Assembly: GCA_024231215.1 (NCBI GenBank)
Contig: JAAEQR010000195.1
Span: 78,755-142,754 of the forward strand
Source of the DNA: PVC group bacterium
Lineage (GTDB): Bacteria > Omnitrophota > Gorgyraeia > B26-G9
Reading direction: 5' to 3'
DNA length: 64,000 bases
In this document: positions 7,884-53,376 of the stretch, in pieces
Position numbering within the stretch: position 1 is the stretch's first letter
How the letters are laid out: every line of letters starts with the position of its first letter
Made by a program: the position numbers and the translations under genes
The notes under the pieces: model-generated
What the model saw: only the letters and a program-made list of their open reading frames with translations
The model's database searches: none
Told to the model about the DNA's origin: nothing

Positions 7884-7902
7884 TCTATCTGTCACAAACC
7901 AG

Positions 7903-8046
7903 CTACTCTTTTGTATTAATATCTATTTCTTCCACTTCAAAATTAGTGCTTAATGCAAATATATTTTCTAAAGCCTGTTGTACATCTTCGGCTGTGAGTT
8001 TTTCCGTGCAGTTATTATGTCTTATTTTTACAATCAGCTCCTTCAT
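7903..8046 (-). CDS. small hypothetical protein (47 aa)
   Basis: Internal start MKELIVKIRHNN... is preceded by a strong RBS GGAGGGGGAAGCA-ATG. It is the only minus-strand small ORF with a convincing RBS. Confidence 0.35.
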   Translation of the reverse strand: MKELIVKIRHNNCTEKLTAEDVQQALENIFALSTNFEVEEIDINTKE

Positions 8047-8244
8047 TGCTTCCCCCTCCGTGGCAAAGATAGAATATAATATTATAAAGTAATTGCTATT
8101 GAAAAAAATATACAAGAATATTTTATTATATTCAAAAGTGATGTTTTGTCAAGAGTAAGATGTATACTTTTTGTGATTAATTTTTAAGCATTTTTTCCTT
8201 GACATGATTTATTGATTGTGATAGGTTTGGAGATGCAGAACAAA

Positions 8245-8292
8245 GGCGTTCTCTCAGTGATTACAACCGGGAGAATGCCTTTTTTGTTTTTG
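8245..8292 (+). terminator. intrinsic terminator or attenuator hairpin in the leader of the nfnAB-icd-gdhA operon
   Basis: GGCGTTCTC...GAGAATGCC is a 9-bp stem with one G-U pair, followed by TTTTTTGTTTTT. It lies about 45 nt upstream of the nfnA GTG and downstream of a candidate TTGACA promoter at about 8202. Confidence 0.45.
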
Positions 8293-8337
8293 AACTATAA
8301 ATCATTTTCGTAGAGATATTTATTATAGGAGACTGTA

Positions 8338-9171
8338 GTGAAAATATTAGAAAAAGAGCGTATTGCGGAAAACCTAACTAAATTTGTTATTAATGCGGAA
8401 CTTATTGCTGAAAAGGCCCTGCCGGGGCAGTTTATTATTCTTATGGGATGGAAAAAGGGCGAACGCATTCCGTTGACAATTGTCGATGCCGATAAAGAGA
8501 AAAAAACGATCACCATAATTTTTCAGGAAGTGGGATACACTACTAAATTATTAGGGAAGATGAATGCCGGGGATTCTTTGTATTCTCTGGTCGGACCTCT
8601 GGGAGAACCAACCCCGATTAAAAATTATGGCAAAGTTATTATTTTAGGTGGGGGAGTGGGTATTGCCGAGCTTTTGCCGGTTGTGCGTGCTTACAAAGAG
8701 GCAGGATGCGTGATTACCTCGATTCTTGGCGGTCGGACCTCTGATCTAGTAATTTTGCAGGATCAGATAAAAGAGTTTTCAGAAGAGTTATTTATAACTA
8801 CGGATGATGGATCATTAGGGGAAAAGGGGTTAGTAACCGATCCTTTAAAACAGTTGCTTGAGAAAAATTCAGATTATGGTTTAGTGTTTTGTGTCGGGCC
8901 GGTTCCGATGATGAGAGCGGTATCTAATGTGACGCGGCCATTTAAAATAAAGACGTTAGTCTGTCTTAATTCGATTATGATTGATGGCACAGGTATGTGC
9001 GGTGGTTGCCGGGTTACAGTGGGCAATAAAACAAAATTCACTTGCGTTGACGGACCTGATTTTGATGGACATGAAGTTGATTTTGAAGAGCTTATGGTTA
9101 GACAGAAAAGATTTATAACGCATGAAAAGCAGTCTAAATGTAAGCTAAACAAGTATGTAAAAGATGAATAA
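8338..9171 (+). CDS. nfnA: NfnA/SudB-like (PyrK-like) FAD + 2Fe-2S electron-transfer subunit
   Basis: 277 aa. GTG start with RBS AGGAG. PyrK-like FAD/NAD fold with the C-terminal cluster motif C-x8-CGGC-x...-C (CLNSIMIDGTGMCGGCRVTVGNKTKFTC). Confidence 0.7.
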   Translation: MKILEKERIAENLTKFVINAELIAEKALPGQFIILMGWKKGERIPLTIVDADKEKKTITIIFQEVGYTTKLLGKMNAGDSLYSLVGPLGEPTPIKNYGKVIILGGGVGIAELLPVVRAYKEAGCVITSILGGRTSDLVILQDQIKEFSEELFITTDDGSLGEKGLVTDPLKQLLEKNSDYGLVFCVGPVPMMRAVSNVTRPFKIKTLVCLNSIMIDGTGMCGGCRVTVGNKTKFTCVDGPDFDGHEVDFEELMVRQKRFITHEKQSKCKLNKYVKDE

Positions 9172-9211
9172 CTGATAATGACTTTTAACTTTAATACAGG
9201 AAATAAAAAAT

Positions 9212-10609
9212 ATGGCAAAAATGAATCCAAAACAAGTTCCAATGCGGGAACAGCTGCCTAAGGATCGAATTAAAAACTTCAAAGAAGTTCCTTGTGGCTA
9301 TTCAGATGAAGAAGCAGTTATTGAAGCCAAAAGGTGTTTGCAGTGTAAAAACCAGCCGTGTGTATTAGGTTGCCCGGTAGAGATAGATATCCCGGGATTT
9401 GTTAAACTAATCGCCGAAGGAGATTTTCCCAGGGCAATAAAGAAGATGAAGGAGACGAACAGTCTTCCTGCGATATGCGGTAGGGTATGTCCTCAGGAAG
9501 ATCAGTGCCAGAAGGTATGTGTTGTTGGAAAGATGGGAGATCCGGTAGCGATTGGGCGTTTAGAAAGATTTATTGCGGATTGGGAGGCAAAGCAAGCTAA
9601 TATAGAGCTTCCTGAAATAAAAGCGCCTACCGGTAAAAAAGTAGCTTGTGTTGGAGGAGGTCCGGCTGGACTTACAGTTGCCGGAGAGTTGGTAAAGCTC
9701 GGGCACAGCGTGACTATATTTGAGGCATTGCATGAGTTGGGAGGAGTTTTAGTTTATGGGATTCCGGAATTCAGGTTGCCGAATAGTATTGTAGAAAGAG
9801 AAGTGGAATATATCCATTCTCTGGGAGTAGAAATTAAAAAATCTTTTATTGTCGGAAAACTAAAGACTATTGATGAATTTTTAGAAGAATTTGATGCTGT
9901 ATTTGTGGGAACAGGCGCTGGGCTTCCTTGGTTTATGGATCTTCCCGGCGAAAATTATAACGGCATATATTCGGCAAATGAGTATCTTACTCGGTCAAAT
10001 TTGATGAAGGCATATCTTTTTCCGGAATACGATACCCCGATTGAAAGGGGAAAGCAGGTTGCGGTAATCGGTGGGGGTAATGTGGCAATGGATTCAGTAA
10101 GAACCGCATTGCGTCTTGGTGCTGCGAAGGCTATGATTATATATAGAAGGTCGAAAAAAGAGATGCCGGCAAGGTTCGAAGAAATACACCATGCTGAGGA
10201 AGAAGGAGTTATTTTTGAATTTTTAACTTTACCGATTGCTTATCATGCCGATGATCAAGGCGGGGTTAAGGAAATGGAATGTTTAAAGATGGAATTGGGT
10301 GAGCCTGATGCTTCTGGAAGAAGACGTCCGGTACCTGTGGAAGGGTCTAATTTTAGAATTCCAGTGGATGTGGTGGTTGTGGCGATCGGTAACAGCCCGA
10401 ATCCTTTAGTTCCAGCTACTACTTCAGGACTTGAGATCGGAAAAAAAGGCAATATAGTAGTTGATGCGACTACTGGAAAAACCAGTAAAAAAGGAGTCTT
10501 TGCTGGAGGAGATATTGCAACCGGTGCGGCTACGGTGATTTCTGCGATGGGTGCAGGAAAAATCGCTGCTAAAAATATAGATGATTACTTAAAAACAGAA
10601 CAATGGTAA
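9212..10609 (+). CDS. nfnB: NfnB/SudA-like, GltD-family NAD(P)H oxidoreductase subunit
   Basis: 465 aa. Two Cys clusters (CLQCKNQPCVLGCP, CGRVCPQEDQCQKVC). Rossmann motifs VACVGGGPAGL and VAVIGGGNVAMD. It is a paralog of gltD at 378..1823. Confidence 0.75.
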   Translation: MAKMNPKQVPMREQLPKDRIKNFKEVPCGYSDEEAVIEAKRCLQCKNQPCVLGCPVEIDIPGFVKLIAEGDFPRAIKKMKETNSLPAICGRVCPQEDQCQKVCVVGKMGDPVAIGRLERFIADWEAKQANIELPEIKAPTGKKVACVGGGPAGLTVAGELVKLGHSVTIFEALHELGGVLVYGIPEFRLPNSIVEREVEYIHSLGVEIKKSFIVGKLKTIDEFLEEFDAVFVGTGAGLPWFMDLPGENYNGIYSANEYLTRSNLMKAYLFPEYDTPIERGKQVAVIGGGNVAMDSVRTALRLGAAKAMIIYRRSKKEMPARFEEIHHAEEEGVIFEFLTLPIAYHADDQGGVKEMECLKMELGEPDASGRRRPVPVEGSNFRIPVDVVVVAIGNSPNPLVPATTSGLEIGKKGNIVVDATTGKTSKKGVFAGGDIATGAATVISAMGAGKIAAKNIDDYLKTEQW

Positions 10610-10627
10610 AATTACAATTAAATTATT

Positions 10628-11119
10628 ATGCAAAGATTTAGTAAAGACGGACGACTGATATTTCCTATACACGAGAGAGAAAATAAGGAATTAAAACATA
10701 AAGAACATAAAATTCGATATGTTATACAAAAAGCATATTGTCCGAATGGCTGTAACATCATGGATCCAGAACACAAAATCCATGATGTTGCTGGCCTGAG
10801 GATTAAATTTAAAAGACCAGGTGTTGAAGGTGAGTTTGTGATCTCTGCAATAGAGGGAGATTTTGATAAAATTATTCTATCGGGGATATTAAAGGATGGA
10901 GTAAAGGATGACCTTTATTGTCCGCATTGCAATGCTATGTTTAAAATACTTGTTAATTGCGATTGTAAGCCAGATGCAGACATGATCGTAATCGGATTGA
11001 CTCCGAAATTGGATTTTAATAATGCAATAACCTTTTGCAATGTGACTGGATGTAACACTGGAACATTTGTTAAGTCTGGAGATGTTATTAGACATATTAG
11101 ATTAGATAATTCGTTTTAA
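10628..11119 (+). CDS. hypothetical Cys-rich protein (8 Cys in CxxxC/CxxC/CxC pairs)
   Basis: 163 aa containing YCPNGC, YCPHCN, CDCKPD and FCNVTGC. It is wedged between nfnB and icd. The RBS is weak, so the start is uncertain. Confidence 0.45.
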   Translation: MQRFSKDGRLIFPIHERENKELKHKEHKIRYVIQKAYCPNGCNIMDPEHKIHDVAGLRIKFKRPGVEGEFVISAIEGDFDKIILSGILKDGVKDDLYCPHCNAMFKILVNCDCKPDADMIVIGLTPKLDFNNAITFCNVTGCNTGTFVKSGDVIRHIRLDNSF

Positions 11120-11148
11120 GTACACTTTGTAACCTTAGGAGACAGAAG

Positions 11149-12351
11149 ATGTCAGAAGAATTAATTAAACAAGCAAAAGAGAAATTTGCAGTGATCATCG
11201 AAGAACAGTTAATGCGGGTTGAAGAGATGAAAAAAGGTGCGGCATGGACCGACTTTTCAAAGCTGTCCCCGATTATTATCGGCGTGTGTTTTGGTGACGG
11301 GATTGGTGAAATTATTTCAAAACACGCGGAAACAGTTTTATCTCATATACTCAAAGATGAAGTGGCCAACGGTAAAGTTAAGTTTAAAGATATTGCCGGG
11401 CTTACGATCGAAAACCGGGCGGCTCAAAAAAAAGCAATCCCTGATGATGTTCTTGAAGAAATAAAGTCTTGTCATGTTATTCTTAAAGGTCCGACGACAA
11501 CTCCGCAGAAAGGCGATAATTGGCCGAATATTGAAAGCGCGAATGTAGCGATGCGCAGATATCTGGATCTTTTTGCTAATGTCCGGCCGGTACGTATTCC
11601 CCAAGAAGGAATTGACTGGTGTTTCTTTCGTGAAAATACAGAAGGCGCTTATGTGTTAGGTTCAAAAGGTTTTGACGTAACTGAAGATTTAAGTATAGAT
11701 TTTAAGGTTATTACTGAACAGGGTGCGGAACGAATTATTCGCATGGCATTTGAATATGCTAAAAATAATAACATTGATAGGGTTACAGTAGTAACTAAAT
11801 CTAATGTTGTTAAGACTACTGACGGCAGATTTTCACAGGTTGCGTTTCGGATTGCAAACGAGTATCCGGGAATTAAGCTGGATGAATGGTATATTGATAT
11901 TATGACCGCAAAACTTATTGATCCGGCCCGGCGTAAAGATTTTAAAGTAATGGTTCTTCCAAATCTTTACGGTGATATTCTTACGGATGAGGCTGCACAG
12001 ATGCAGGGTGGTGTTGGTACAGCGGGAAGTGCTAATATTGGAAAACATTGGTCGATGTTTGAGGCAATTCATGGTAGTGCTCCGCGGATGGTTAAAGAAG
12101 GCAGAGCTAAATTTGCTGATCCTTGTTCTATGATTCGTGCTAGCGCGATGCTGCTGCGACATATTGGCTATCCTGAACGCGCGGAGAAAGTAGAGATGGC
12201 TTTGGAGGTATGTGGTACGTATGAGAAAAAAATGGTAATTACCGGCAGAGATTCCGGAGTTACCGGAGAAGAGTATACTCAGTATTTATTATCCTGGGTG
12301 GATAATCCGGAGCTTAAGACTCGCTGGGGACAAGGAGTTAACAAAAGTTAA
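11149..12351 (+). CDS. icd: isocitrate dehydrogenase (NADP) of the beta-decarboxylating dehydrogenase family
   Basis: 400 aa with GDGIGEI and NLYGDILTDEAAQMQGGVGTAGSANIG motifs. RBS AGGAGA. Confidence 0.7.
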   Translation: MSEELIKQAKEKFAVIIEEQLMRVEEMKKGAAWTDFSKLSPIIIGVCFGDGIGEIISKHAETVLSHILKDEVANGKVKFKDIAGLTIENRAAQKKAIPDDVLEEIKSCHVILKGPTTTPQKGDNWPNIESANVAMRRYLDLFANVRPVRIPQEGIDWCFFRENTEGAYVLGSKGFDVTEDLSIDFKVITEQGAERIIRMAFEYAKNNNIDRVTVVTKSNVVKTTDGRFSQVAFRIANEYPGIKLDEWYIDIMTAKLIDPARRKDFKVMVLPNLYGDILTDEAAQMQGGVGTAGSANIGKHWSMFEAIHGSAPRMVKEGRAKFADPCSMIRASAMLLRHIGYPERAEKVEMALEVCGTYEKKMVITGRDSGVTGEEYTQYLLSWVDNPELKTRWGQGVNKS

Positions 12352-12429
12352 GGTAAGGGAGGTAAGATGCAAGTTAAAGAAACAAAGAAAAAAAGAAAAC
12401 TTATTGAAAAAGAAGGAGGAGAGAAAATA

Positions 12430-13767
12430 ATGGATGCAAAAGTAAAACAGTTTATGGAAGGTGTTATCAAAAGAAACCCGGGAGAATCGGAGTTTCATCA
12501 GGCAGTGCAGGAAGTTGCTGAATCGGTGATGCCGTTTATCGACGCAAATCCAAAATATAAGAAAGCAAAAATTTTAGAAAGAATAGCAGAACCGGAAAGA
12601 GTAATAATGTTCCGGGTGCCGTGGAAGACTGATAAAGGTGAAGTTGAGGTTAACCGAGGTTTTCGAATTGAGATGAATAGCGCTATTGGTCCTTACAAAG
12701 GTGGATTACGTTTTCATCCAACTGTTTATTTAGGGATTTTGAAATTTCTTGCTTTTGAGCAGGTATTTAAAAACAGCTTAACTACTTTGCCTATGGGCGG
12801 CGGAAAAGGCGGTTCTGATTTTGATCCTAAAGGAAAATCTGATAATGAAGTAATGAGTTTTTGCCAGAGTTTTATGACTGAACTCTCGCGTCATATCGGG
12901 CCTGATACAGATGTTCCTGCAGGAGATATTGGTGTTGGCGGACGTGAAATTGGGTTTATGTTTGGGCAATATAAAAGAATCCGCAATGAGTTTACCGGAA
13001 TTTTAACTGGTAAAGGGCTTAATTGGGGTGGTAGTTTGATTAGACCGGAAGCTACTGGCTATGGTTGTGTTTATTTTGTTGAAGCGATGTTGAATCATCT
13101 TGGCGATTCTTTAAATGGAAAAGTTTGTACTGTATCCGGGGCTGGAAACGTTGCACAATATACAGTAGAGAAGGTAAACCAGTTGGGCGGCAAATGTGTT
13201 ACTTTATCTGATTCCGGTGGATATATTTATGATAAAGATGGGATTGATGCAAATAAGCTGGCATTTGTGATGAAGCTTAAGAATATAAAGCGCGGCAGAA
13301 TTAAAGAATACGCGGATAAATACGGTTGTAAATATGTTGCGAATAAACGTCCTTGGGATGTTAAATGTGATGTGGCTTTTCCTTCGGCTACGCAGAATGA
13401 AATAAATAAGGAAGATGCTAAAGCTTTAGTAAAGAATGGATGTATTGCTATCGGTGAAGGCGCAAACATGCCTACAACTCCTGATGGAGTAGAAGTATTT
13501 CAGAAAGCCAAAATTTGTTACGGTCCGGGTAAAGCAGCTAATGCCGGTGGAGTAGCAACTTCTGGTTTGGAAATGTCTCAGAACAGCTTAAGGTTGTCCT
13601 GGAGTCGTGAAGAAGTAGACAAGCGTTTGCATAATATTATGCTGGACATTCATGCACAGTGTGTAAAATACGGTACAAGTGGAGAGCATGTTGATTATGT
13701 AAAAGGTGCGAATATCGGAGGATTTGTTAAAGTAGCTGATTCAATGCTTGATCAGGGAATAGTGTAA
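12430..13767 (+). CDS. gdhA: NADP-specific glutamate dehydrogenase
   Basis: KGGLRFHP and [16 protein letters not shown] signatures. The start was moved to the internal ATG ([29 protein letters not shown]) preceded by AAGGAGGA; it aligns with the E. coli GdhA N-terminus. Confidence 0.85.
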
Positions 13768-13787
13768 GATATACTAGTTAGAGCAAT

Positions 13788-13830
13788 AAAAAACCGCTTC
13801 TGAGTAAAATTAGAGGCGGTTTTTTTATTT
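13788..13830 (+). terminator. Rho-independent terminator after gdhA
   Basis: AACCGCTTCT-gagtaaaatt-AGAGGCGGTT followed by TTTTTTTATTT. Confidence 0.7.
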
Positions 13831-13911
13831 CCATCGACAAAACTAGAGATAAATAATAAAATATTATGTGTTAACCCGGATTTTATTTTTAACTGGAACT
13901 TATGGAGCGCG

Positions 13912-15300
13912 ATGTTATTTAATTCTCTTGAATTTCTCATTTTTTTTCTTATTATATACGGTTTATACCTTATTCTGTCGCATCGTTGGCAGAACCGAAT
14001 GCTTCTTTTGGCAAGTTATATTTTTTATGGGTTTTGGGATTATCGATTTTTGTCTTTAATTTTTATTTCTACTCTGGTAGATTATTTTTGTGGATTGGGG
14101 ATTGAATCAAGTCAGAATATTACTCGCTGCCGAAGACTCCTTATAATTAGCATAGTTGTAAATCTTTCTTTGCTGGGCGTATTTAAGTATTTCAATTTTT
14201 TTGCTTCCGGACTTAGCTTGCTTTTAAGTAATATTGGCATTGGGGCTGATTTGAGATCTTTAAATATTATTCTTCCTGTAGGAATTTCATTTTATACGTT
14301 TCAAACGATGAGCTATACAATCGATATTTATCGCGGGAAATTGAAACCGACACGGAAATTTTTGGATTTTGCTTTGTTCGTGGCTTTTTTCCCTCAGCTG
14401 GTTGCCGGTCCGATTGAAAGAGCTCGCAGGCTTCTGCCTCAAATCTTGCAGCCTAGAAAATTATCACTTAATTCTTTTTATGAAGGATGTTTTTTGATTT
14501 TCTGGGGTCTTTTTGAAAAGATTTTTATTTCCGGAAACCTGGCCTTGATTGTTGATCCGGTATTTGCTGAGCAATACCAGGGTGACGGAGGCCGAGTATT
14601 GATTGCCTTGTACGCGTTTGCCTTTCAGATTTTTTGTGATTTTGACGGATATTCTAATATCGCGCGTGGGCTGGGAAAATGCATGGGATTTGAGTTGATG
14701 AACAACTTTAATATCCCGTACATTGCAGCTGATCCGAAGGAATTCTGGCAGAGGTGGCATATAAGTTTGTCGAGCTGGTTGCGGGATTATCTTTATATCC
14801 CCTTAGGTGGCAACCGGGGATCCCGGGGCAGGACAAACTGTAATTTGATGCTTACAATGCTGCTTGGTGGATTATGGCATGGTGCAGCCTGGACATTTGT
14901 TGCGTGGGGAGCTTATCACGGGATACTGCTGATTATTTACCGCCGATTGAATATAGTAACAAAAAAGTTTTTAGCAATACGTATTTTTCTATTTTTCCAC
15001 ATTATTACTTTAAGTTGGCTTTTATTCAGAGCTGAATCTTTTGCGCAGGTTAACGAGATGTTTGCGGCTATGTTATTTAATTTGCGATTTGCGCCGGATA
15101 CAATTTTAATTTTTTTGCGTATGCTTATAATTATTTTACCTTTACTATGTGTTCAAGTTGGTCAATATGTTACGAAGGATCGTTTATTTCTTTTCCGGCG
15201 TCATTGGCTGATAAAGACATTTATTTACGCGGTGTTTGTTTATCTTATGGCGGTTTGGGGTATATTTAGTGCTGAGGAGTTTATATATTTTCAGTTTTAA
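13912..15300 (+). CDS. MBOAT-family membrane-bound O-acyltransferase (AlgI/DltB/PatA-like)
   Basis: 462 aa, polytopic. Conserved MBOAT His region (WHGAAWTFVAWGAYHG). RBS ATGGAG. Confidence 0.8.
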   Translation: MLFNSLEFLIFFLIIYGLYLILSHRWQNRMLLLASYIFYGFWDYRFLSLIFISTLVDYFCGLGIESSQNITRCRRLLIISIVVNLSLLGVFKYFNFFASGLSLLLSNIGIGADLRSLNIILPVGISFYTFQTMSYTIDIYRGKLKPTRKFLDFALFVAFFPQLVAGPIERARRLLPQILQPRKLSLNSFYEGCFLIFWGLFEKIFISGNLALIVDPVFAEQYQGDGGRVLIALYAFAFQIFCDFDGYSNIARGLGKCMGFELMNNFNIPYIAADPKEFWQRWHISLSSWLRDYLYIPLGGNRGSRGRTNCNLMLTMLLGGLWHGAAWTFVAWGAYHGILLIIYRRLNIVTKKFLAIRIFLFFHIITLSWLLFRAESFAQVNEMFAAMLFNLRFAPDTILIFLRMLIIILPLLCVQVGQYVTKDRLFLFRRHWLIKTFIYAVFVYLMAVWGIFSAEEFIYFQF

Positions 15301-16217: not shown

Positions 16218-16249
16218 CTTATTTATTGCCAACGCATTATATGTTTGTA

Positions 16250-16284
16250 TTGACAAAATCTGTTATTTATGTTAAATTCTTATT
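16250..16284 (+). promoter_or_regulatory. candidate sigma70-type promoter for the car-pur-pyr array
   Basis: TTGACA-17nt-TAAATT. A roughly 190-nt AT-rich leader follows before carA. Confidence 0.3.
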
Positions 16285-16477
16285 AATTCAGGAACAAAGG
16301 TGTTCACCGAAAGGGAGAGCGTCTTTTTTTTATGCCTTTTTGCGTAAAAAATATGATTTAAAAAAAGACTTTTTAAATAATTAATATTGTATTATAATTA
16401 GATAAATTATAATCCCTTCAGATTTCAGGACTTCTTAGAAATCCGCAAGATAGAACATAAACATAAATATAATTTTA

Positions 16478-17584
16478 ATGGATACCCTTGTGTGTAATCA
16501 TAAGCGACAAAGAGCAAAACTTGCGTTAGAAGATGGCAGAATATTTCCCGGATTTTCTTTTGGTGCTACGGGAACTGCTTTGGGAGAAGTTGTCTTTAAT
16601 ACCAGCTTAGCTGGATACCAGGAAATACTCACAGATCCTTCCTACAAAGGTCAGATGGTAACAATGACCTATCCTCTTATTGGTAATTATGGTGTAAATG
16701 AAGAAGATGTTGAATCACATAAACCTTTTGTTGAAGCATTTATTGTAAAAGAATGTAGTCGTATTGCCAGTAATTGGCGTTCTACGATGACCTTAGATGA
16801 ATATCTTAAAAAGAATAATATTATTGGTATCGAAGGGGTAGATACACGTGCGATTACCCGTCATGCAAGATTGCAGGGAGCAATGAAGGCGGTGCTTTCC
16901 ACCGAAGACTTAGATGATAAAAGTTTAGTTGCAAAAGCAAAAGCTTCAACTGGACTGGTGGGAGTGGATTTAGTCAAAGAAGTAACTTCTTCTGAAATCA
17001 AGCATTGGACAAAAGAAGGTAAATATAAAGTTGTTGTTTTAGATTGCGGAGTAAAACTGAATATTTTAAGAGAATTAGCAGGACTTGATTGCCAGGTGAT
17101 TGTTGTTCCGGCATCTACTACAGCAGAAGAGATCCTGGCTTTAAATCCTGACGGGCTTATGCTTTCTAATGGCCCGGGAGATCCAGCTGCTGTAACATAT
17201 GTTGTTGAGACGGTGAAACAATTAATCGGAAAACTGCCGATGTTCGGCATTTGTCTTGGCCATCAGATGTTGGGACAGGCTTTAGGCGGAAAAACATATA
17301 AACTTAAGTTTGGCCATCATGGGGGTAATCAGCCGGTAAAAGATCTTAAAACAGGCAAGATCGATATTAGTGTGCAGAATCATGGATTTTGCGTGGATAT
17401 CGATTCATTAAATAAAGATGATATCGAAATTACACATATTAATCTTAATGATCAGACTTTAGAGGGAATTCGGCATAAAAAACTGCCGATTATCTCAGTG
17501 CAGTTTCATCCGGAAGCTTGTCCTGGTCCGCATGATTCAAAATATTTATTTAAACAATTTATGGAAATGATAGAAAATGCCTAA
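16478..17584 (+). CDS. carA: carbamoyl-phosphate synthase small (glutaminase) subunit
   Basis: 368 aa. [35 protein letters not shown] aligns to the E. coli CarA N-terminus. GATase triad region GICLGHQ. Confidence 0.9.
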
Positions 17585-20500
17585 GAGTACAGACATTAAA
17601 AAAATATTAATTATCGGTTCTGGTCCGATTATCATCGGTCAGGCTTGTGAGTTTGATTATTCCGGAACTCAGGCGTGTAAAGCGCTTAGAGAGGAAGGAT
17701 ATGAAGTAGTCTTGGTGAATTCTAACCCGGCAACGATTATGACCGACCCGGAGACAGCTGATTCTATTTATATCGAACCGATTACTCCGGAAGTAGTGAT
17801 TAAGATTATCGAAAAAGAACGTCCGGATGCTATCCTGCCTACATTGGGAGGTCAGACAGGTTTAAATATAGCAATGAAAGTTGCCGAAAGCGGTGCTTTA
17901 GAAAAATATAATGTAAAGATGATCGGAGCAAACGCTGCAGCAATTAAAAAAGCCGAAGATAGAAAAGATTTTAAAGAAGCAATGCAGAATATAGAATTGG
18001 ATGTGCCCAAAAGTGCACTTGCGTATACCATGGAAGAGGCACTTGGGGCTTTAGATGATATTGGTTTGCCGATAATCATAAGGCCTAGTTTTACCATGGG
18101 TGGTACTGGCGGTGGAATTGCGCATACAAAGGAAGAATTTGAGCGTATTTGTGCTTTAGGTTTAAAAAGCAGTATGATCAACGAAGTGCTTGTAGAAGAA
18201 TCAATTCTCGGCTGGAAAGAATATGAATTAGAAGTAATGCGGGATACAAAAGACAATGTAGTAATTGTCTGCTCAATTGAGAACTTTGATCCCATGGGGA
18301 TTCATACCGGCGATTCGATCACTGTTGCTCCGGCGCAGACTTTGACAGATGTTGAGTATCAGAAAATGAGAAATGCCGCTTTAGCGATTATGCGGGAGAT
18401 TGGAGTTGAGACAGGTGGCTCTAATGTGCAGTTTGCCGTAAATCCAAAAGACGGAAGAATGGTTGTTATTGAAATGAATCCGCGGGTATCGCGCAGTTCA
18501 GCCTTAGCTAGTAAAGCAACCGGATTTCCGATTGCTAAATTCGCGGCAAAGCTTGCTGTAGGATATACGTTAGACGAAATACAAAATGATATTACAAAAG
18601 AAACTCCGGCTTCTTTTGAACCTACAATAGATTATTGTGTAGTGAAAATCCCGCGGTTTACATTCGAAAAGTTTCCGGAAGCAAAAGATGTTCTGGGTAT
18701 CTCCATGAAATCTGTAGGAGAAACCATGGCGATTGGCCGGACTTTTAAAGAAGCTTTGCAAAAAGGCCTGCGTGGTTTGGAAATAGGGCATACGGGATTT
18801 GATAATAAGCAGAAGTTTACTGATATCTCTGAGGAAAAAATGATGCATCGTTTAAAAGAACCAAATGCTTCTCGCATTTTTTATATGAAATACGCTTTGC
18901 AGAGAGGCATGAGTATCGAAGAGCTTTATGAGATAACAAAAGTCGATCCCTGGTTTATTAGTAATCTTAAAGAGATCGTTGAATTAGAAAAAGAGATTGT
19001 AAACCATAGTAGTAAGACTAAGGGTATGGGATTTGATATTGAAATTTTAGAACAGGCTAAGCAGTGGGGATTTAGTGATAAACAAATTGCCGATTTAATT
19101 CAAACTGAGGAATCGGCAGTGCGGCATTTCCGAAAGAAACAAGGGCTTGAAGCTACCTATAAATTGGTTGATACATGTGCCGCGGAATTCGAAGCATATA
19201 CGCCGTATTATTATTCTACTTATGAGACTGAGGATGAGGCTAGGTCTAGTGATAAGAAAAAGATTATGATTTTGGGCGGCGGTCCGAATCGGATTGGCCA
19301 AGGGATTGAATTTGATTATTGTTGCTGTCACGCGGCGTTTGCGCTGAAGGAATTAGGTTATGAAACAATAATGGTTAATTCAAATCCGGAAACAGTTTCT
19401 ACGGATTACGATACTTCAGATAAATTATATTTTGAGCCGCTTACTTTTGAAGATGTAATGAATATCGTTGATAAGGAAAAACCAGATGGAATTATTGTGC
19501 AGTTTGGCGGACAGACCCCGCTGAATCTCGCTAAACGGCTTTTGGATGCAGGGGCTCCGATTATCGGAACATCTGTAGAATCAATTGACCGGGCTGAAGA
19601 TAGGGATAAATTTTCAAAACTGGTTAAAAAATTAAGAATACATCAGCCGGCTAATGGTTCGGCAACAAATAAAGAAGAAGCATTGGAAATCGCTAGTGAA
19701 ATTGGGTATCCGGTTTTAGTGCGTCCATCATATGTGCTTGGCGGACGGTCGATGAAAATAGTCTATAACGATGATGATTTAAATGAGTTTATTAAAGAAG
19801 CAAAAGATACAAGCAAAGATAAACCGATTCTTATTGATAAATTCTTAGAAGACGCAGTAGAAGTTGATGTAGATGCAATATCGGATGGTGAGATGACAGT
19901 TATCGGCGGGATTATGGAACATATTGAAGAAGCCGGGGTGCATTCCGGTGATTCAGCGTGTGTGCTTCCCCCGCATACATTAAGCGATGATATTATTGAT
20001 AAAATCCGAAAGGATACTTTGGCAATGTCAAAAGAGCTAAAGGTAAAAGGGTTGCTTAATATTCAGTTTGCCGTAAAAAAAGATAAAGTATATGTCTTAG
20101 AAGTTAATCCCAGGGCTTCACGTACAGTGCCTTTTGTAAGTAAAGCTACCGGGGTTCCATTAGCTAAAATCGCGGCAAAGGTAATGTCCGGCAAGAAATT
20201 AACAGAGCTTGGATTTACCGATGAAATAAAAGTTGAACATTTTTCCGTAAAAGAATCAGTGCTTCCTTTTTCACGTTTCTCCGGCGTGGATGTTTTGTTA
20301 GGCCCGGAGATGAAATCTACCGGGGAAGTAATGGGAATTGATACTTCGTTTGGGCAGGCGTTTTATAAAGCTCAGATTGCTGCGGGTACTGTTTTGCCGA
20401 GGGAAGGAACAATTTTTATTAGTGTTAAGAATGATGATAAGCGGAATATCGTATTTATAGCTAAGAAACTATATGACATGGGCTATTCGATCATGGCGAC

Positions 20501-20804
20501 TAAAGGTACCGCGAAAGTTTTAAATTCGAATAATATTAAGACGAAAAAAATGAAAAAGATTGGTGAAGGTAATACGGATATTTTAGAAAATATTCGAAAC
20601 GGGAAGATTAATCTTATTATCAATACGCCTTCCGGAGAAAGAGGGCAATCGGATATGAAGCCAATGCGAAGCCTGGCAGTTATGCACGGAGTTCCGTGTA
20701 TAACGACTATTTCGGGAGCTCAGGCTGCGGTAAACGGGATTGAATCGATGCTTGAAGGAGAGATGTCAGTGACTTCGATCCAGGAATATATTAAACAGAT
20801 CTAA
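17577..20804 (+). CDS. carB: carbamoyl-phosphate synthase large subunit, copy 1
   Basis: 1075 aa. Two ATP-grasp halves and a C-terminal MGS-like allosteric domain. Its start overlaps the carA stop. Confidence 0.9.
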
Positions 20805-20851
20805 CCGCTCACAATAGGGTGAGTAGTAACGTATTCGGGGAGGAATACAGT

Positions 20852-23800
20852 ATGCCGAGAAGAGATGATATTAAAAAAGTTTTGATTATAGGTTCCGGGC
20901 CGATTATTATTGGGCAGGCATGTGAATTTGATTATTCAGGTACACAGGCTTGTAAAGCATTGAAAGAGGAAGGTTACGAGGTTGTTCTGGTTAACTCTAA
21001 TCCGGCAACAATTATGACTGATCCGGGTATGGCGGATAAAACATATATAGAACCGTTGACCATAGAAAGTATTGAAAAAATCATTGAAAAAGAACGGCCT
21101 GACGCATTGCTTCCTAATTTAGGCGGGCAGACAGCTTTGAATCTTTCGGCTTCTTTATCTAAAGCTGGTATATTAAAAAAATATAATGTGGAAGTTATCG
21201 GAGTAAAAACAGATGCAATTGAACGCGGTGAAGACAGAATTATTTTTAAAGAAACAATGAACAAGCTTGGTATTGAAATGCCGACTTCAGAGCCGTGTCA
21301 TTCCGTAGAGGAAGCAGAGAAAATTGCTGAAAAAATAGGATATCCGGTAGTATTAAGGCCTGCATATACTATGGGCGGTACAGGCGGTGGTATTGCCTAT
21401 AATATAGAAGAATTACGTACGATTGTAAGTCGTGGTCTTTCGGTTAGCATAGTGCATCAGGTTTTAGTTGAAGAATCTGTTATTGGCTGGGAAGAGCTGG
21501 AACTTGAAGTTGTAAGAGACGCTAAAGGGCAGAAAATCACCGTATGTTTTATTGAAAACATAGATGCGATGGGAGTGCATACCGGAGATAGCTTTTGCGC
21601 AGCACCAATGTTGACGGTTCCGGAAAAATTGCAAAAGCGTATGCAGGAGGCTGCTTATAAAATAGTTGATGCTATCGGGGTTACCGGTGGTACGAACGTA
21701 CAGTTTGCGCATAATTTAAAAGATGACCGATTGGTTGTAATTGAAATTAATCCCAGGACTTCACGTTCATCAGCCTTGGCGTCTAAAGCAACTGGTTTTC
21801 CAATTGCCAGGATTTCTACAAAACTTGCAGCTGGGTTGACAATGGATGAAATCCCTTATTGGAAAGAAGGAACTCTTGAAAAATATGCGCCGAGTGGAGA
21901 ATATGTAGTAATTAAATTTGCTCGTTGGGCGTTTGAGAAATTTCCCGGGTCTCAGGATGTCTTAGGTACACAGATGAGAGCTGTTGGTGAAGTAATGAGT
22001 ATTGGTAAGAATTTTAAAGAAGCATTTTTGAAAGCAATACGTTCTTTGGAAATTAAACGTTATGGTCTTGGCGGAGCAAAAGATTTCAAGGAACTTTCAT
22101 TAGATAGATTAAAAGAGAAATTAGCTAATCCTTCTAGTGAGAGGATATTCCTGGTCTATGAGGCCTTGCGTAAGGGTATGAGCCCGGAAGAGCTTTATAA
22201 ATTAACACATATTGGTATCTGGTTTTTAACTCAGATGCAGGAACTTGTGCAATTTGAGGAAAAGGTGCTTACCTGTAAATGGGAAGATCTGGCGGATGAA
22301 CAATTGATCGAAGCTAAAAAACTAGGGTTTGCGGATAAGTATTTGGCTGGTCTTTTCAATGTTGATGAAAAGAAAATTCGGGATAAGCGGATTGCCTTGG
22401 GGATGCATGGCAGATTTGAAGCAGTACCGGTAAGCGGTGTGGAAAATGCCGCGTATTATTATTCAACATATAACGCGGAAGATACTGTGCCAGTTTCTCT
22501 GAATAAAAAGATTATGATTTTAGGCGGCGGTCCGAATCGAATCGGGCAGGGGATTGAATTTGATTATACTTGTGTTCATGCGGCGTTTACCTTACGTGAT
22601 GAGGGTTATGAATCAATTATGGTCAATTGTAATCCGGAAACAGTTTCTACTGATTATGATACTTCTAATAAACTGTATTTTGAACCATTGACAGTGGAAG
22701 ATGTTTTAACTATTTATGAAAAAGAAAAGCCGGAAGGTGTTATTGTCCAGTTTGGCGGGCAGACTCCGTTAAACATCGCGCAAGAATTAAAAGATAATGG
22801 TGTAAAAATATTAGGTACGACTCCGGAAAGTATTCATTTAGCAGAAGACCGGGAGCGTTTCAGGGAAAAAATGATTGCCTTAGGCGTGCCTCAGCCGGAA
22901 AGTGGAATTGCGCGTTCATTAGAAGAAGCAATTGATATTTCGGAAAAGATTGGCTATCCGCTGATGGTACGTCCTTCTTATGTATTGGGCGGTAGAGGTA
23001 TGGAAGTTATTTATGATCAGGTAATGTTGAAACGCTATGCTATAGAAGCGATCCAGGTAAGCCCGGAACATCCAATGCTTATCGACCGATTTTTAGAAGA
23101 CGCGATTGAAGCAGAAGTGGATGCGCTAAGTGATGGCGAGAATACATTTGTTGCTTCGATTATGGAACATATAGAACTAGCTGGGGTTCATTCCGGAGAT
23201 TCCGCATGTGCGATACCTCCTCATTCGATTCCGGAAAAACATATCAAGACAATAGAGGGATATACCGCGAAGATCGCAAAAGAATTAGAAGTTGTCGGGT
23301 TGATGAATATTCAATATGCGATTTGTGATGATAAGGTGTATATTTTGGAAGCTAACCCGCGAGCTTCACGTACAGTTCCGATTGTTTCCAAAATTATGGG
23401 TATTCAAACAGCGCGGATTGCAACACAGCTGATGTTGGGTAAAAAGCTGAAAGATTTTCCGGAATTAAAAAGTGAAAAGGTTTCTTATGTGGGAGTTAAA
23501 GAAGCGGTTTTTCCTTTTAATATGTTCCCTGAAGTAGACCCTCTCTTAGGCCCGGAGATGAGAGCAACCGGAGAGGTTATGGGTATTGCCGATTCTTTTG
23601 CTAAAGCATTTTATAAAGCCGAAGAAGCTGCCGGAGCCAAGCTGCCGGTAAAAGGGAATATTTTACTTACTGTTGCCGATAGAGATAAGCCAGCGTTGCT
23701 TCCAATTGCTGAACATGTTAAGAAATTGGGATTTAATATCTATGCTACCGAAGGGACAGGAACATATTTAAAAGCACATGGTATTGATACTACTTTCGTG

Positions 23801-24049
23801 AAAAAAGTGCATGAAGGAAGACCTAATGTTTCGGATTCAATTAAGAATAAAGAGATACAGTTGGTAATTAATACTCCGGTAGGAAGAACAAGTAAATATG
23901 ATGACAGCTATATTCGCATGATGGCGATACAGCATAAGGTACCCTATATAACGTCAATGGCAGCAGCGCAGGCGAGTATAGAAGGAATTGAAGCTGTGAA
24001 TAATGCGGATATTGCACCGAAAGCATTACAGGATTATTATAAGGAGTAG
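20852..24049 (+). CDS. carB: carbamoyl-phosphate synthase large subunit, copy 2 (tandem paralog)
   Basis: About 1065 aa. Start chosen at MPRRDDIKK with RBS GGGGAGGAA (the ORF track extends to a GTG at 20819). Near-identical N-terminal 60 aa to copy 1, but a divergent C-terminal allosteric domain. Confidence 0.88.
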   Translation: MPRRDDIKKVLIIGSGPIIIGQACEFDYSGTQACKALKEEGYEVVLVNSNPATIMTDPGMADKTYIEPLTIESIEKIIEKERPDALLPNLGGQTALNLSASLSKAGILKKYNVEVIGVKTDAIERGEDRIIFKETMNKLGIEMPTSEPCHSVEEAEKIAEKIGYPVVLRPAYTMGGTGGGIAYNIEELRTIVSRGLSVSIVHQVLVEESVIGWEELELEVVRDAKGQKITVCFIENIDAMGVHTGDSFCAAPMLTVPEKLQKRMQEAAYKIVDAIGVTGGTNVQFAHNLKDDRLVVIEINPRTSRSSALASKATGFPIARISTKLAAGLTMDEIPYWKEGTLEKYAPSGEYVVIKFARWAFEKFPGSQDVLGTQMRAVGEVMSIGKNFKEAFLKAIRSLEIKRYGLGGAKDFKELSLDRLKEKLANPSSERIFLVYEALRKGMSPEELYKLTHIGIWFLTQMQELVQFEEKVLTCKWEDLADEQLIEAKKLGFADKYLAGLFNVDEKKIRDKRIALGMHGRFEAVPVSGVENAAYYYSTYNAEDTVPVSLNKKIMILGGGPNRIGQGIEFDYTCVHAAFTLRDEGYESIMVNCNPETVSTDYDTSNKLYFEPLTVEDVLTIYEKEKPEGVIVQFGGQTPLNIAQELKDNGVKILGTTPESIHLAEDRERFREKMIALGVPQPESGIARSLEEAIDISEKIGYPLMVRPSYVLGGRGMEVIYDQVMLKRYAIEAIQVSPEHPMLIDRFLEDAIEAEVDALSDGENTFVASIMEHIELAGVHSGDSACAIPPHSIPEKHIKTIEGYTAKIAKELEVVGLMNIQYAICDDKVYILEANPRASRTVPIVSKIMGIQTARIATQLMLGKKLKDFPELKSEKVSYVGVKEAVFPFNMFPEVDPLLGPEMRATGEVMGIADSFAKAFYKAEEAAGAKLPVKGNILLTVADRDKPALLPIAEHVKKLGFNIYATEGTGTYLKAHGIDTTFVKKVHEGRPNVSDSIKNKEIQLVINTPVGRTSKYDDSYIRMMAIQHKVPYITSMAAAQASIEGIEAVNNADIAPKALQDYYKE

Positions 24050-24051: not shown

Positions 24052-25428
24052 ATGTGTGGGATTTTTGGAATCAGTGGACATAAAGAAGCGGGGAGATTAA
24101 CACACCTGGGGTTATTCGCATTGCAGCATCGAGGCGAGGAAAGTGCCGGGATTGTAACTTGTGATGGGAAAAAAGTGCGTTCTCGCCGAGCCATGGGCTT
24201 GGTTGGGGATGTGTTTGATGAGCCGGCAATAAAATCACTGAGGGGCAATGTTGCCATAGGACATGTTCGCTATTCTACTACCGGATCAAGCAACATGAAA
24301 AATATTCAGCCGTTTTTGGTAAGCCATAAGAAGGGAAATATTGCGGTTGCGCATAACGGAAACCTGACCAATACATATGAACTGAGAGAAAAGCTGGAAG
24401 AAAAAGGTTCTATTTTCCAGAGCTCAATGGATTCGGAAGTAATTGTGCATCTTTTAGCGCAGTCTAGCAATAAAGATTATAGGCAGCGGGTTGTGGAAAC
24501 ATTATCGCAGCTTGACGGTGCTTATTCTCTGAGCATATTAATTAATAATGTATTGATCGGAGTGCGGGATCCACACGGATTTAGGCCGTTATGTATTGGA
24601 AAACTGGATGGTGCTTATGTCTTGGCGAGTGAGACATGTGCGCTTGATTTAATTCACGCTAAATATGTAAGAGATGTAGCTCCGGGAGAAGTTGTGTTTA
24701 TCACAAAACAAGGGATTGAATCAATAACACCCTTTCCCAAAAAACCACATGCATTTTGTATATTCGAATACATATATTTTGCTAGGCCGGATAGTAATAT
24801 CTTTGGTAAAAACGTATATTTAACCAGAAAACGTTTAGGCAAGAGTATGGCTCGAGAAGCTTCGGCTAAATGTGATTCAATAATGCCGATACCTGATTCG
24901 GGTAATTATGCAGCACTAGGATTTGCCGAAGAAGCGGGTATACCTTTTGAAGTGGGGATGATCAGGAACCATTACATCGGAAGGACGTTTATTCAGCCCA
25001 CACAGGGCATCCGGGATTTTAGGGTAAGAGTGAAGCTTAATCCGATAAAAGATGTGCTTAAAGGGAAAAAACTGGTTGTTGTAGAAGATTCTATTGTCCG
25101 CGGGACAACAAGTAAATCGCGGGTAAAGACAATACGTGACGCAGGAGTAAAAAAAATACATATGCGTATTAGCTGTCCGCCTATAAAATTCCCGTGTTTC
25201 TATGGAATTGATTTTCCTTCACGTAAGGAACTTATTGCTTCCGGGAAATCTGTAAAACAGATACAGAAATTTTTAAAACTGGATAGCCTGGAATATTTAA
25301 GCCTTAAAGGGATGTTAGATGCAATGCTTTTGCCTAAATGTGAGTTTTGCACGGCATGTTTTAGCGGTAAGTATCCGACAAAGTTGCCAAAGAGATTTTC
25401 TAAAAAGATGCTGGAAAAAAGAAAATAG
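24052..25428 (+). CDS. purF: amidophosphoribosyltransferase
   Basis: MCGIFGI N-terminal nucleophile, PRTase domain, and C-terminal Cys residues for a 4Fe-4S cluster. Confidence 0.9.
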   Translation: MCGIFGISGHKEAGRLTHLGLFALQHRGEESAGIVTCDGKKVRSRRAMGLVGDVFDEPAIKSLRGNVAIGHVRYSTTGSSNMKNIQPFLVSHKKGNIAVAHNGNLTNTYELREKLEEKGSIFQSSMDSEVIVHLLAQSSNKDYRQRVVETLSQLDGAYSLSILINNVLIGVRDPHGFRPLCIGKLDGAYVLASETCALDLIHAKYVRDVAPGEVVFITKQGIESITPFPKKPHAFCIFEYIYFARPDSNIFGKNVYLTRKRLGKSMAREASAKCDSIMPIPDSGNYAALGFAEEAGIPFEVGMIRNHYIGRTFIQPTQGIRDFRVRVKLNPIKDVLKGKKLVVVEDSIVRGTTSKSRVKTIRDAGVKKIHMRISCPPIKFPCFYGIDFPSRKELIASGKSVKQIQKFLKLDSLEYLSLKGMLDAMLLPKCEFCTACFSGKYPTKLPKRFSKKMLEKRK

Positions 25429-25437: not shown

Positions 25438-26955
25438 ATGTGTGCGCAAATAGGTTTTGATAACGAAAAGTATTTAAAAGAACAAAGCGCGGCAATCTTA
25501 GAACGGGTAAAGAAATCTGAACATAAGCTGTATCTTGAATTTGGAGGAAAGCTGCTTTTTGATTATCATGCATCGAGAGTGCTCCCGGGATTTGATCCCA
25601 ACGTAAAAATGAGGCTACTGCAAAAGCTTAAAGACAAAGCCGATATCATACTGTGCATCTATGCCGGTGATATTGAAAGAAGGAAAGTGCGGGCGGATTT
25701 CGGAATTACCTATGATGCAGATGTGCTTAAAGTTATTGATGATTTATCTCATTGGGGGATAACCAGAGTTCAGGTTGTGATCACGCGTTTTGACGGACAG
25801 CGTTCCGCGACTATATTTAAAAACAAATTAGAACGAAGAGGGGTAAAGGTATATACACATAGTTTTACTAAAGGATATCCTACGGATATAGATATGATTG
25901 TAAGCGATGAGGGGTATGGGGCTAATCCTTATATTAAGACAGACAATCAATTGGTTGTAGTGACGGCTCCCGGACCTGGAAGCGGAAAACTAGCGACTTG
26001 TCTTTCTCAGTTATATCATGATTACCGGAAAGGAAGAAAAAGCCGGTATTCAAAATTTGAAACTTTTCCGATATGGAATATCCCTTTAAAACATCCGGTA
26101 AATGTAGCTTATGAAGCGGCAACAGCAGATCTTAGGGATTTTAATATGATTGATCCTTTTCATATGGAGACTTATGGAGAAAAGACTATAAATTATAACC
26201 GGGATGTTGAAGTGTTTCCGGTATTAAAAAGGATTCTGGAAAAGATTATGAACGCAGAATCTCCTTATCAGTCACCTACGGATATGGGAGTTAATCGGGC
26301 AGGTTTTGGAATTATTGATGATACAGTAGTTCAGGAAGCAGCAAGGCAGGAGATTATACGGCGATATTTCCGGTATGCTTGTGAGTATATAATGGGATTT
26401 GTGGACAAAGAAACAGTGCAGAGAGTGGAATTACTTCTGGAAGAATTAGGAATAAAAATTGAGAATAGAAAAGTTGTCTTACCGGCACGAAAGGCAGCCG
26501 AGCAGGCGCAGAAGAAAAAGAAAGGTAATGAAGGTATTTACTGTGGAGCAGCATTAGAACTGCCTGATGGGACAATTATTACCGGGAAAAATTCACCGTT
26601 AATGCATGCCGCATCAAGTGTTATTATAAATGCAGTAAAAAAGCTTGCGGGTATTCCAGATAAAATTCATTTATTATCTCCAAACATTTTAGAATCTATA
26701 AGGCAGCTTAACAGTAATATTCTTAATGCTAAAATCGTAAGCTTGGATTTAGAAGAAATGCTTATTGCGTTGAGTATTAGTGCGGCGACCAATCCTACAT
26801 CTCAGCTGGCGATTGAAAAGTTGAAAGAATTGCGGAATTGTGAGGTGCACATGACGCATATTCCTACTCCGGGAGATGAGGCTGGTTTGCGGCGGTTAGG
26901 GGTGAATATGACCAGCGATCCTGATTTTTCTACTAAGGGGTTATTTGTGTCGTAA
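25438..26955 (+). CDS. UPF0371/DUF1846-family protein of unknown function
   Basis: 505 aa. [23 protein letters not shown] and [21 protein letters not shown] resemble the UPF0371 family signature. RBS GGGAGA. Confidence 0.65.
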
Positions 26956-26997: not shown

Positions 26998-28656
<1,659 letters not shown>

Positions 28657-28657: not shown

Positions 28658-29377
28658 TTGAAAGGGGTTTTGAAGTTGAATATTAAATCACATGAAGCAT
28701 ACATAGATACATTAAGTAAAATAAGTAAGGCGATAACAAGCGATCTTTATTTAGAAGACGTTTTAAAACTTGTGGTTACCTTGACCGCGAATGTTATGAA
28801 CGCAAAAATTTGCGCTTTGTGGCTTTTGGATGAAAAGACTCAGGAATTAAAAATTAAAGCAACACAAGCGATGAGCAGTGAATATTTAAAAGAGCGTACA
28901 TTAAAAGTTGGCGAGGGAATTGTCGGGTTAGTCGCGAAAAGCAAGAAGCCGATTGCGATACTGGATATTTTGAAAGATAAAAGGTATAAAGAGAAGAAAT
29001 TAGCTAAGAAAGAAAAACTTGTTTCTATGCTTAGTATTCCGATGCTTGTAAAGAGTCGTGTGATTGGAGTTGTTAATTGTTATACAACCGCGAAGTATAA
29101 ATTTACTAAAAGCGACATCAATCTTTTAAGTACTGTTTCCAATCAGGCTGCTGTAGCTATAGAAAATACAGAGTTAATTGTTAAGACAAAAGTTGTGCAG
29201 GAAGAATTAGACGCGCGAAAAAAAGTGGAAAAAGCAAAAGGGCTCTTAATGAAGGAACAGAATATTACTGAGCAGCAAGCGTACAATATCCTCCGCAAGT
29301 CAAGTATGAATAAACGCATTTCCATGAAAGATATTGCCGAGGCAATAATCCTATCTTCTGAAATCAAGAAAAAATAA
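28658..29377 (+). CDS. GAF-domain + ANTAR-domain RNA-binding regulator
   Basis: 239 aa. N-terminal GAF-like region and C-terminal ANTAR helix set (EQQAYNILRKSSMNKRISMKDIAEAII). Start codon uncertain; TTG or ATG at 28658-28692. Confidence 0.65.
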   Translation: MKGVLKLNIKSHEAYIDTLSKISKAITSDLYLEDVLKLVVTLTANVMNAKICALWLLDEKTQELKIKATQAMSSEYLKERTLKVGEGIVGLVAKSKKPIAILDILKDKRYKEKKLAKKEKLVSMLSIPMLVKSRVIGVVNCYTTAKYKFTKSDINLLSTVSNQAAVAIENTELIVKTKVVQEELDARKKVEKAKGLLMKEQNITEQQAYNILRKSSMNKRISMKDIAEAIILSSEIKKK

Positions 29378-39539: not shown

Positions 39540-39596
39540 TTTAGTTTATAGTCAATATTAATAGAAACATTTTACTAGTGACTATAAACTAATCAT

Positions 39597-39673
<77 letters not shown>

Positions 39674-46574: not shown

Positions 46575-46584
46575 AGGATGTTTT

Positions 46585-53370: not shown

Positions 53371-53376
53371 GGAAAA

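Follow-up and report, generated by a model that had tools for sequence, protein, structure and literature searches.

According to Liu et al. (2021; PMC8121099), bacterial carbamoyl phosphate synthetase (CPS) has traditionally been taken to depend on glutamine alone. A locus from an uncultured Omnitrophota bacterium (contig JAAEQR010000195.1, positions 78,755 to 142,754; this whole stretch of 64,000 nucleotides is called the window hereafter) carries carA, encoding the glutaminase (small) subunit, followed by two carB genes for the large subunit, here named CarB1 and CarB2. How do one glutaminase subunit and two synthetase subunits share the work? In the reading favoured here, to which a probability of about 0.55 is assigned, CarA and CarB1 form a glutamine-dependent enzyme and CarB2 is a CarA-independent synthetase acting on free ammonia. 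The CarA-independence and ammonium use of CarB2 we infer from published fitness data for Bacteroides thetaiotaomicron, taken together with a signature in the protein sequence. The clade to which CarB2 belongs is widespread in anaerobe-rich phyla and represents a candidate exception to the glutamine-only rule for bacterial CPS.

Two complete and anciently diverged large subunits

The open reading frame (ORF) listing and the translations give carA, CarB1 and CarB2 as intact and co-oriented genes, which, together with the matches to TIGR01368 and PRK05294 (Table 1), bears out the preliminary description of a carA followed by two full-length tandem carBs. Both large subunits score past the equivalog cut-offs for CarB, namely 599 bits for PRK05294 and 1027 bits for TIGR01369 (1588 bits for CarB1 and 1390 bits for CarB2 with the latter), and each is thus a full-length four-domain CarB. 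All 13+13 ATP-site residues checked are kept in both copies, as had been proposed for the ATP-grasp motifs, and so are both K+ loops. In E. coli numbering (used throughout), these include R129, R169, E215, H243, Q285, E299, N301, R303 and R306 of the first site and R675, R715, E761, H788, Q829, E841, N843, R845 and R848 of the second. Also kept in both are I18, I20, A23, E25, E383, G575, E577, E604, M911 and E916, as well as the NH3 gate residues of CPS, C232/A251/A314 (PMC8674909). Since every checked ATP-site, K+-loop, tunnel and gate residue is kept, both CarBs are expected to be active synthetases.

Along their full length the two proteins share 53% identity. Their first 60 residues, earlier described as nearly identical, show 88% protein identity, but the third codon positions at the identical residues of this segment match at only 47%, like the rest of the gene, which speaks against both gene conversion and the duplication of a segment during assembly. 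The 88% identity is best regarded as that of a universally conserved N-terminus under purifying selection. Assembly duplication and gene conversion are ruled out by the 53% identity, the saturation of synonymous sites and the recurrence of the same gene order in four independent assemblies. Inactivating substitutions in the ATP-grasp sites, a possibility that had been raised for one of the copies, occur in neither, and an inactive pseudo-paralog is ruled out by the intact catalytic residues. Furthermore, the CarB2 clade is internally more conserved than the CarB1 clade (mean distance 0.37 vs 0.48; 79 aligned sequences). The chance that the second copy represents an artefact or a pseudo-paralog is negligible. 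The separate clades in the CarB tree (see below) and the diverged third codon positions settle the question of recent duplication or ancient paralogy in favour of the latter, and CarB1 and CarB2 are to all appearances old paralogs that did not arise by recent tandem duplication.

The strong difference between the allosteric domains, to which attention had been drawn initially, holds as a figure (36% identity between CarB1 and CarB2) but not as the main distinction between the two proteins. The gap between CarB1 and E. coli CarB is equally large in this domain (34% identity), and the allosteric domain is therefore the fastest-evolving part of every CarB; over the whole protein, identity to E. 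coli CarB is 61% for CarB1 and 51% for CarB2. The unusual drop is found in domain A, where identity amounts to 75-78% within clades vs 57% between them. Divergent allosteric domains, together with a few differing positions in the effector pocket (S948T, variable V994, S1026D, R1031K/M, and Cys in place of Y1040 in CarB1), would be expected of pathway-specific isozymes, i.e., a pyrimidine-regulated and an arginine-regulated CarB set apart by these domains. Such dual CPS (PyrAA/PyrAB and CarA/CarB) is found in Bacillus subtilis and Lactobacillus plantarum, where the small subunit is duplicated too and the pairs lie in the arg or the pyr operon. The window shares with these systems the two large subunits in one genome, but two carA-carB pairs in arg and pyr operons are absent from it: a single carA is present within the 64 kb, and both carBs lie, with purF and pyrG, in the same operon. 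A distinction between the clades by allosteric domain (residues 937-1073) is likewise missing, as this domain holds 0 of the 35 fixed sites that discriminate them. Moreover, the core ligands of both effectors are kept in both CarBs, namely the UMP/IMP phosphate-binding residues K954, T974, G976, T977, K993, N1015 and T1016 and the ornithine residues E783, D791, E892 and T1042. The framing in terms of an arginine-regulated and a pyrimidine-regulated isozyme, implied in the preliminary description, finds little support in this comparison, and such a division is improbable.

A clade of lone CarB proteins and its residue signature

Scans seeded with CarB2 covered a one-genome-per-species collection and metagenome contigs; the metagenome matches listed came mostly from other phyla and were used for a census of carA rather than for statistics within Omnitrophota. 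In a neighbour-joining tree built from the 79-sequence alignment, the CarB2-type (34) and CarB1-type (45) sequences fall into clean clades, the CarB2-type set being monophyletic (34/34). The CarB2 of the window groups with lone CarBs, apart from the carA-linked CarB, and the assignment of both window proteins to their clades is close to certain on the basis of sequence. CarB2-type genes in the two scans are 62-80% identical to window CarB2 (63-77% in the case of stand-alone genes of many phyla) and ~51% to window CarB1, and CarB1-type genes are 57-64% identical to window CarB1. Omnitrophota orthologs of window CarB2 reach about 80-89% identity. Many Omnitrophota assemblies contain, for each of the two CarBs, a separate ortholog of ~80% identity, and the two orthologs are often located on one contig. 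Hosts of CarB2-type genes comprise Omnitrophota, Lentisphaerae, Planctomycetota, Kiritimatiellia, Opitutales, Bacteroidales, Desulfobacterota/Syntrophia, Dehalococcoidia, Latescibacterota, Hydrogenedentota and Nitrospiraceae. The CarB2 clade is the less divergent of the two even though it reaches across Bacteroidota, Desulfobacterota, Planctomycetota, Chloroflexota and Omnitrophota, which hints at horizontal transfer among anaerobes or at an exceptionally strong constraint.

The two types differ in their genomic habits. A carA gene lies directly upstream in 61/76 evaluable CarB1-type loci vs 1/50 CarB2-type loci. The sole CarB2-type locus of this kind belongs to Pelovirga sp. (L027 in the numbering of the scan loci; 6840-14626), where the order is carA-CarB2-CarB1 and which is the only locus outside Omnitrophota with both types together. 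The window CarB2 is of the orphan type by phylogeny but not by lack of an adjacent carA, as carA stands 3.3 kb upstream in the same operon. Within Omnitrophota, CarB2 follows carA-CarB1 in the window and in L167-L170, precedes carA in L085, and has no nearby carA in L001, L082 (from the complete genome CP070837.1), L083/84 and L087 (where neighbours were compared for seven query genes only). Since its position relative to carA varies in this manner, CarB2 behaves as an independent gene.

The clade-discriminating sites are concentrated in the carboxyphosphate domain (residues 1-403), which holds 27 of the 35 (binomial P = 2e-6); five more lie at residues 530-540 and three in the carbamoyl-phosphate domain. 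The CarB2 signature includes K214E, T249C, A253M, Q254L, Y261Q, R265Q, N337Y, I352G, P360A and D530P/T531V/C532S, with small deletions at 278, 340 and 539-541. Eleven positions, among them 250, 257, 258, 262, 276, 321, 324, 325 and 552, are, in addition, invariant in CarB1-type sequences and variable in CarB2-type ones. The window CarB2, which has C249, Q261, Q265, E258, K262 and P530-V531-S532, departs from the set of residues that canonical CarB keeps invariant near the presumed tunnel mouth and on the side of the small subunit (T249, Y261, R265, D258, Q262, K321, K325 and D530-C532), and the same departure is found across the 34 members of its clade. The tunnel residues of CarB1, including T249, Y261 and R265, are identical to those of E. 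coli. T249 reportedly hydrogen-bonds ammonia just beyond the gate, and R265 is said to form, with P360 and H361 of the small subunit, the tunnel wall at the subunit interface. The contacts of the small subunit are reportedly confined to the carboxyphosphate and oligomerisation domains. The NH3-accepting carboxyphosphate domain and residues 530-540, to which most changes of the CarB2 clade belong, are presumably the parts on which the small subunit docks in E. coli. One contribution of this locus is a signature by which the two CarB types can be told apart and which points to the side of ammonia entry instead of the allosteric domain.

With E. coli CarAB (PDB 1JDB, 1BXR), the window CarA and CarB1 agree in every feature checked; CarA conserves the Cys-His-Glu triad (C269, H353, E355) as well as P358-G359-P360-H361. 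CarB2 resembles E. coli CarB in its four-domain architecture and in all catalytic residues (1140 bits to 1BXR_A) and differs from it by the fixed substitutions at K214, T249, A253, Q254, Y261, R265, N337, I352, P360 and D530-C532.

The source of ammonia for CarB2

CarA and CarB1 would form the canonical glutamine-dependent heterodimer, since their genes overlap (by 8 nt, ATGCCTAA), all tunnel residues are present and CarB1 belongs to the carA-linked clade. CarB2, preceded by a 47-nt spacer with its own Shine-Dalgarno sequence, should be able to make carbamoyl phosphate, because its two ATP-grasp sites are intact, as are the carbamate tunnel and inner NH3 gate. Most likely it would work without CarA, taking free NH3/NH4+ from solution, and would provide carbamoyl phosphate under ample ammonium, with CarA-CarB1 using glutamine.

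The published precedent is that of B. thetaiotaomicron, which has carAB (BT0556-57) in a high-affinity-ammonium locus and a lone “CarB2” (BT3866) elsewhere (Liu et al., 2021; PMC8121099). Loss of its carAB lowers fitness only if no ammonium is added, carB2 matters when ammonium is present, and the co-fitness of carA is r = 0.85 with carB vs r = -0.02 with carB2 (PMC8121099). Liu et al. (2021) propose that this CarB2 is an ammonium-dependent CPS, for which confirmation is still needed (PMC8121099). Like the window, B. thetaiotaomicron has a second full-length CarB beside a canonical carAB, in a setting of nitrogen assimilation. The lone CarBs of Bacteroidales are 64-69% identical to window CarB2 and fall in the same clade (L014, L015, L029 and L036 in the tree), and because five Bacteroidales loci carry lone CarB2-type genes, we infer that BT3866 belongs to this clade too. 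An ammonia-dependent second enzyme is therefore not without published precedent. The arrangement itself recurs within the phylum, as the order carA-CarB1-CarB2-(purF)-(DUF1846)-pyrG is found in at least four other Omnitrophota contigs (L167, L168, L169, L170); given also how widespread the CarB2 type is, the arrangement, initially described as unusual, is no rare oddity.

The likeness to B. thetaiotaomicron ends with regulation. Unlike BT3866, the window CarB2 is no orphan and stands directly after carA-CarB1 in one operon, so that differential transcription as in B. thetaiotaomicron is inapplicable, and a transcriptional switch responding to ammonium, as proposed for Bacteroides, cannot account for the division of work here. 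The operon appears, from its sequences, to hold two different synthetases without recent shared history. As both are encoded in one operon, any division of labour between them would be kinetic or allosteric and not transcriptional. A natural case of both enzymes being co-transcribed, in which any such division must be kinetic, is a further contribution of this locus.

Several points weigh against a CarA-independent, ammonium-using CarB2. The presumed clade membership of BT3866 is drawn from the five Bacteroidales loci, and no biochemical assay of any CarB2-type protein was found in the searchable literature, the evidence from B. thetaiotaomicron being genetic. The ammonium-switch regulation proposed for Bacteroides does not sit well with the co-expression of both enzymes in a single operon. 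The placement of residues 249-265, 321-325 and 530-540 at the CarA interface or tunnel mouth is presumed by us. Further, CarB2 retains the inner gate and E217, so that delivery of NH3 from a docked subunit is structurally possible, and its co-transcription with carA in the Omnitrophota lineage, like its place directly after carA in Pelovirga, is compatible with sharing of CarA.

Sharing of CarA is the main rival. In this case the single CarA would dock on CarB1 as well as on CarB2, and the two resulting glutamine-dependent isozymes would differ in their kinetic or effector properties. In addition to the conserved gate (C232/A251/A314) and E217, such sharing would agree with the presence of only one carA within the window and with the location of CarB2 in the carA operon (window and L167-L170), adjoining carA (L085) or directly after it (L027). 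However, 49/50 evaluable CarB2-type loci of other lineages have no nearby carA, the CarB2 clade has replaced or relaxed R265, Y261 and their neighbours, which canonical CarB keeps invariant, CarB2 is not translationally coupled to carA, and carA of B. thetaiotaomicron is not co-fit with carB2 (PMC8121099). Sharing is, on balance, possible but unlikely. Of the two explanations offered at the outset, subunit sharing or an ammonia-dependent enzyme, it is the latter that fits the stand-alone clade, the changes in the tunnel and the genetics of B. thetaiotaomicron. Recruitment of CarB2 into the carAB operon through physical cooperation, by way of a shared CarA or mixed CarB1/CarB2 oligomers, is quite unlikely; if true, it would provide a single CPS assembly that turns from glutamine to free ammonium and back with no need for transcriptional control.

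An ammonia-using CarB2 also invites comparison with mitochondrial CPS I, in which an inactive glutaminase-like domain remains fused to the synthetase and which depends on N-acetylglutamate. The synthetase moiety of CPS I (PDB 5DOT, 6UEL) is homologous to CarB2 (780 bits), and use of ammonia would match. CarB2 differs in that it has no glutaminase-like domain and keeps the bacterial-type residues of the nucleotide and ornithine sites. For annotation, the locus carries a warning that two genes labelled “carB” are not redundant copies. Further, the operon offers CarA, CarB1 and CarB2 of a single organism for direct comparison.

Neighbouring genes, upstream region and remaining window

The coordinates of the operon and of its neighbours are collected in Table 1. 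The CarB2 ORF first opens at GTG 20819; the true start is ATG 20852, which lies 8 nt past a GGAGG Shine-Dalgarno and agrees with the N-termini of homologs. No convincing terminator or promoter was found in the 47-nt spacer between CarB1 and CarB2.

Table 1. Features of the carA-CarB1-CarB2 locus in the window, and DUF1846 genes near CarB2 in the window and in other loci
Feature	Locus	Position	Strand	Remarks
PyrK-like and GltD-like oxidoreductase pair	window	8338-10609
Isocitrate-dehydrogenase-like gene	window	11149-12351		upstream context
gdhA, NADP glutamate dehydrogenase	window	12367..13767	+	PRK09414 765 bits
Intergenic region upstream of carA	window	16218..16477	+	promoter-like conserved element ~16387-16421 (TTGTATTATAATTAGATAAATTATAATCCCTTCAG)
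carA, glutaminase (small) subunit	window	16478..17584	+	368 aa; TIGR01368 520 bits (cut-off 307)
CarB1, canonical large subunit, presumed partner of CarA	window	17577..20804	+	1075 aa; PRK05294 1745 bits
Spacer, 47 nt	window	20805..20851	+	Shine-Dalgarno of CarB2 (GGGGAGGAA)
CarB2, second full-length large subunit, orphan/stand-alone clade	window	20852..24049	+	1065 aa; PRK05294 1535 bits
purF, amidophosphoribosyltransferase	window	24052..25428	+	TIGR01134 524 bits (cut-off 350)
DUF1846/UPF0371 gene	window	25438..26955	+	505 aa; PRK13663 780 bits
pyrG, CTP synthase	window	27055..28656	+	PRK05380 864 bits
GAF-ANTAR regulator	window	28658..29377	+	last gene of same-strand run; Pfam GAF and ANTAR
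DUF1846 gene near CarB2	L001	6424-7929
DUF1846 gene near CarB2	L083	12234-13751
DUF1846 gene near CarB2	L085	7175-8692	-
DUF1846 gene near CarB2	L100	8161-9675
DUF1846 gene near CarB2	L167	12593-14110
DUF1846 gene near CarB2	L168	12598-14115
DUF1846 gene near CarB2	L169	11228-12745

The neighbourhood of the operon is centred on gdhA, which is consistent with an ammonia-using CarB2. The gdhA gene represents the low-affinity route of ammonium assimilation. It closes an ammonium-assimilation block (8338-13767) composed of the PyrK-like/GltD-like pair (which we take to be NfnAB-like), a small unannotated ORF, the isocitrate-dehydrogenase-like gene and gdhA itself; neither glnA nor gltB is present within the window. 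The order Iso_dh-gdhA-carA is common to the window, L167 and L168. The carA-less CarB2 genes of Omnitrophota (L001, L082, L083/84) adjoin gdhA, a Glu_synthase-domain gene, guaA, purL or DUF1846. Near CarB2 in L083 (3692-8174) and L082 (7304-8896) is a 530-aa protein with only a Glu_synthase (FMN) domain, and L083 and L084 encode near CarB2 a 326-aa protein that matches NAD_synthase/Asn_synthase and GMP_synt_C faintly and has no GATase domain. The neighbours of carA-less CarB2 in L082 and L083/84 thus appear to have no glutaminase domain.

Ammonia might also reach CarB2 from another partner encoded nearby, namely the DUF1846/UPF0371 protein or the PurF downstream. When 270 ORFs neighbouring CarB2-type genes were clustered across phyla, no recurrent partner emerged except a downstream PurF-like gene. 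In the window, purF starts 2 nt beyond the CarB2 stop; it likewise follows CarB2 directly in L167, L168 and L170. The same junction is mirrored in nine loci of other phyla (L023, L024, L034, L052, L090, L093, L094, L097, L110), so that the carB2-purF linkage is recurrent. The PurFs of these nine loci are 26-33% identical to that of the window; though divergent, they are complete and have both the N-terminal Cys and the PRTase motif. They can therefore be regarded as normal enzymes of purine synthesis, and the PurF-like neighbour was rejected as an alternative glutaminase. The DUF1846 gene adjoins or neighbours CarB2 in most Omnitrophota-like loci, namely in eight distinct ones with varying position and orientation (Table 1; L083/84 and L085/86 each count as one), but it was not found near CarB2 in the scan loci of other phyla. 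Its product matches PDB 7F00 and 3BH1 at E ~1e-160, neither structure having an assigned enzymatic function, and the one paper found on it reports hemin binding. Furthermore, no co-fit glutaminase was found for the CarB2 of B. thetaiotaomicron (PMC8121099). Supply of ammonia by either neighbour is thus highly improbable.

Upstream of carA, an AT-rich element, TTGTATTATAATTAGATAAATTATAATCCCTTCAG (16387-16421), is common to the window, L167 and L168 and is probably a promoter or operator. A TTGACA-17-TAAATT match is located at 16250-16278, and a T-run with hairpin-like sequence (16300-16335) stands just ahead of the AT-rich element. An RNA leader, riboswitch or ANTAR target was considered and rejected, as in five aligned carA upstream regions an AT-rich, promoter-like element stood out but no convincing structured leader. 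An Rfam scan of the window matched three tRNAs only and no family upstream of carA, where no ANTAR target hairpins were identified either. The GAF-ANTAR regulator, of the RNA-binding antiterminator type, recurs after pyrG in L167 (15799-16494) and L168 (17346-18056) and near CarB2 in L082 (6382-7086).

Nearly all sizeable ORFs of the window lie on the + strand and the GC skew is strongly positive throughout (0.14-0.32), which suggests that the window (1-64000) belongs to one replichore with extreme strand bias. Beyond the operon, three consecutive tRNA genes are found at 39462-39824, followed by a gene for a 958-aa protein made up almost wholly of HEAT repeats (41968-44844) and a trehalose/alpha-glucan cluster (44940-57632) comprising a trehalose-phosphatase fusion, GH65, two alpha-amylase-family proteins, GH57+DUF3536 and GH77.

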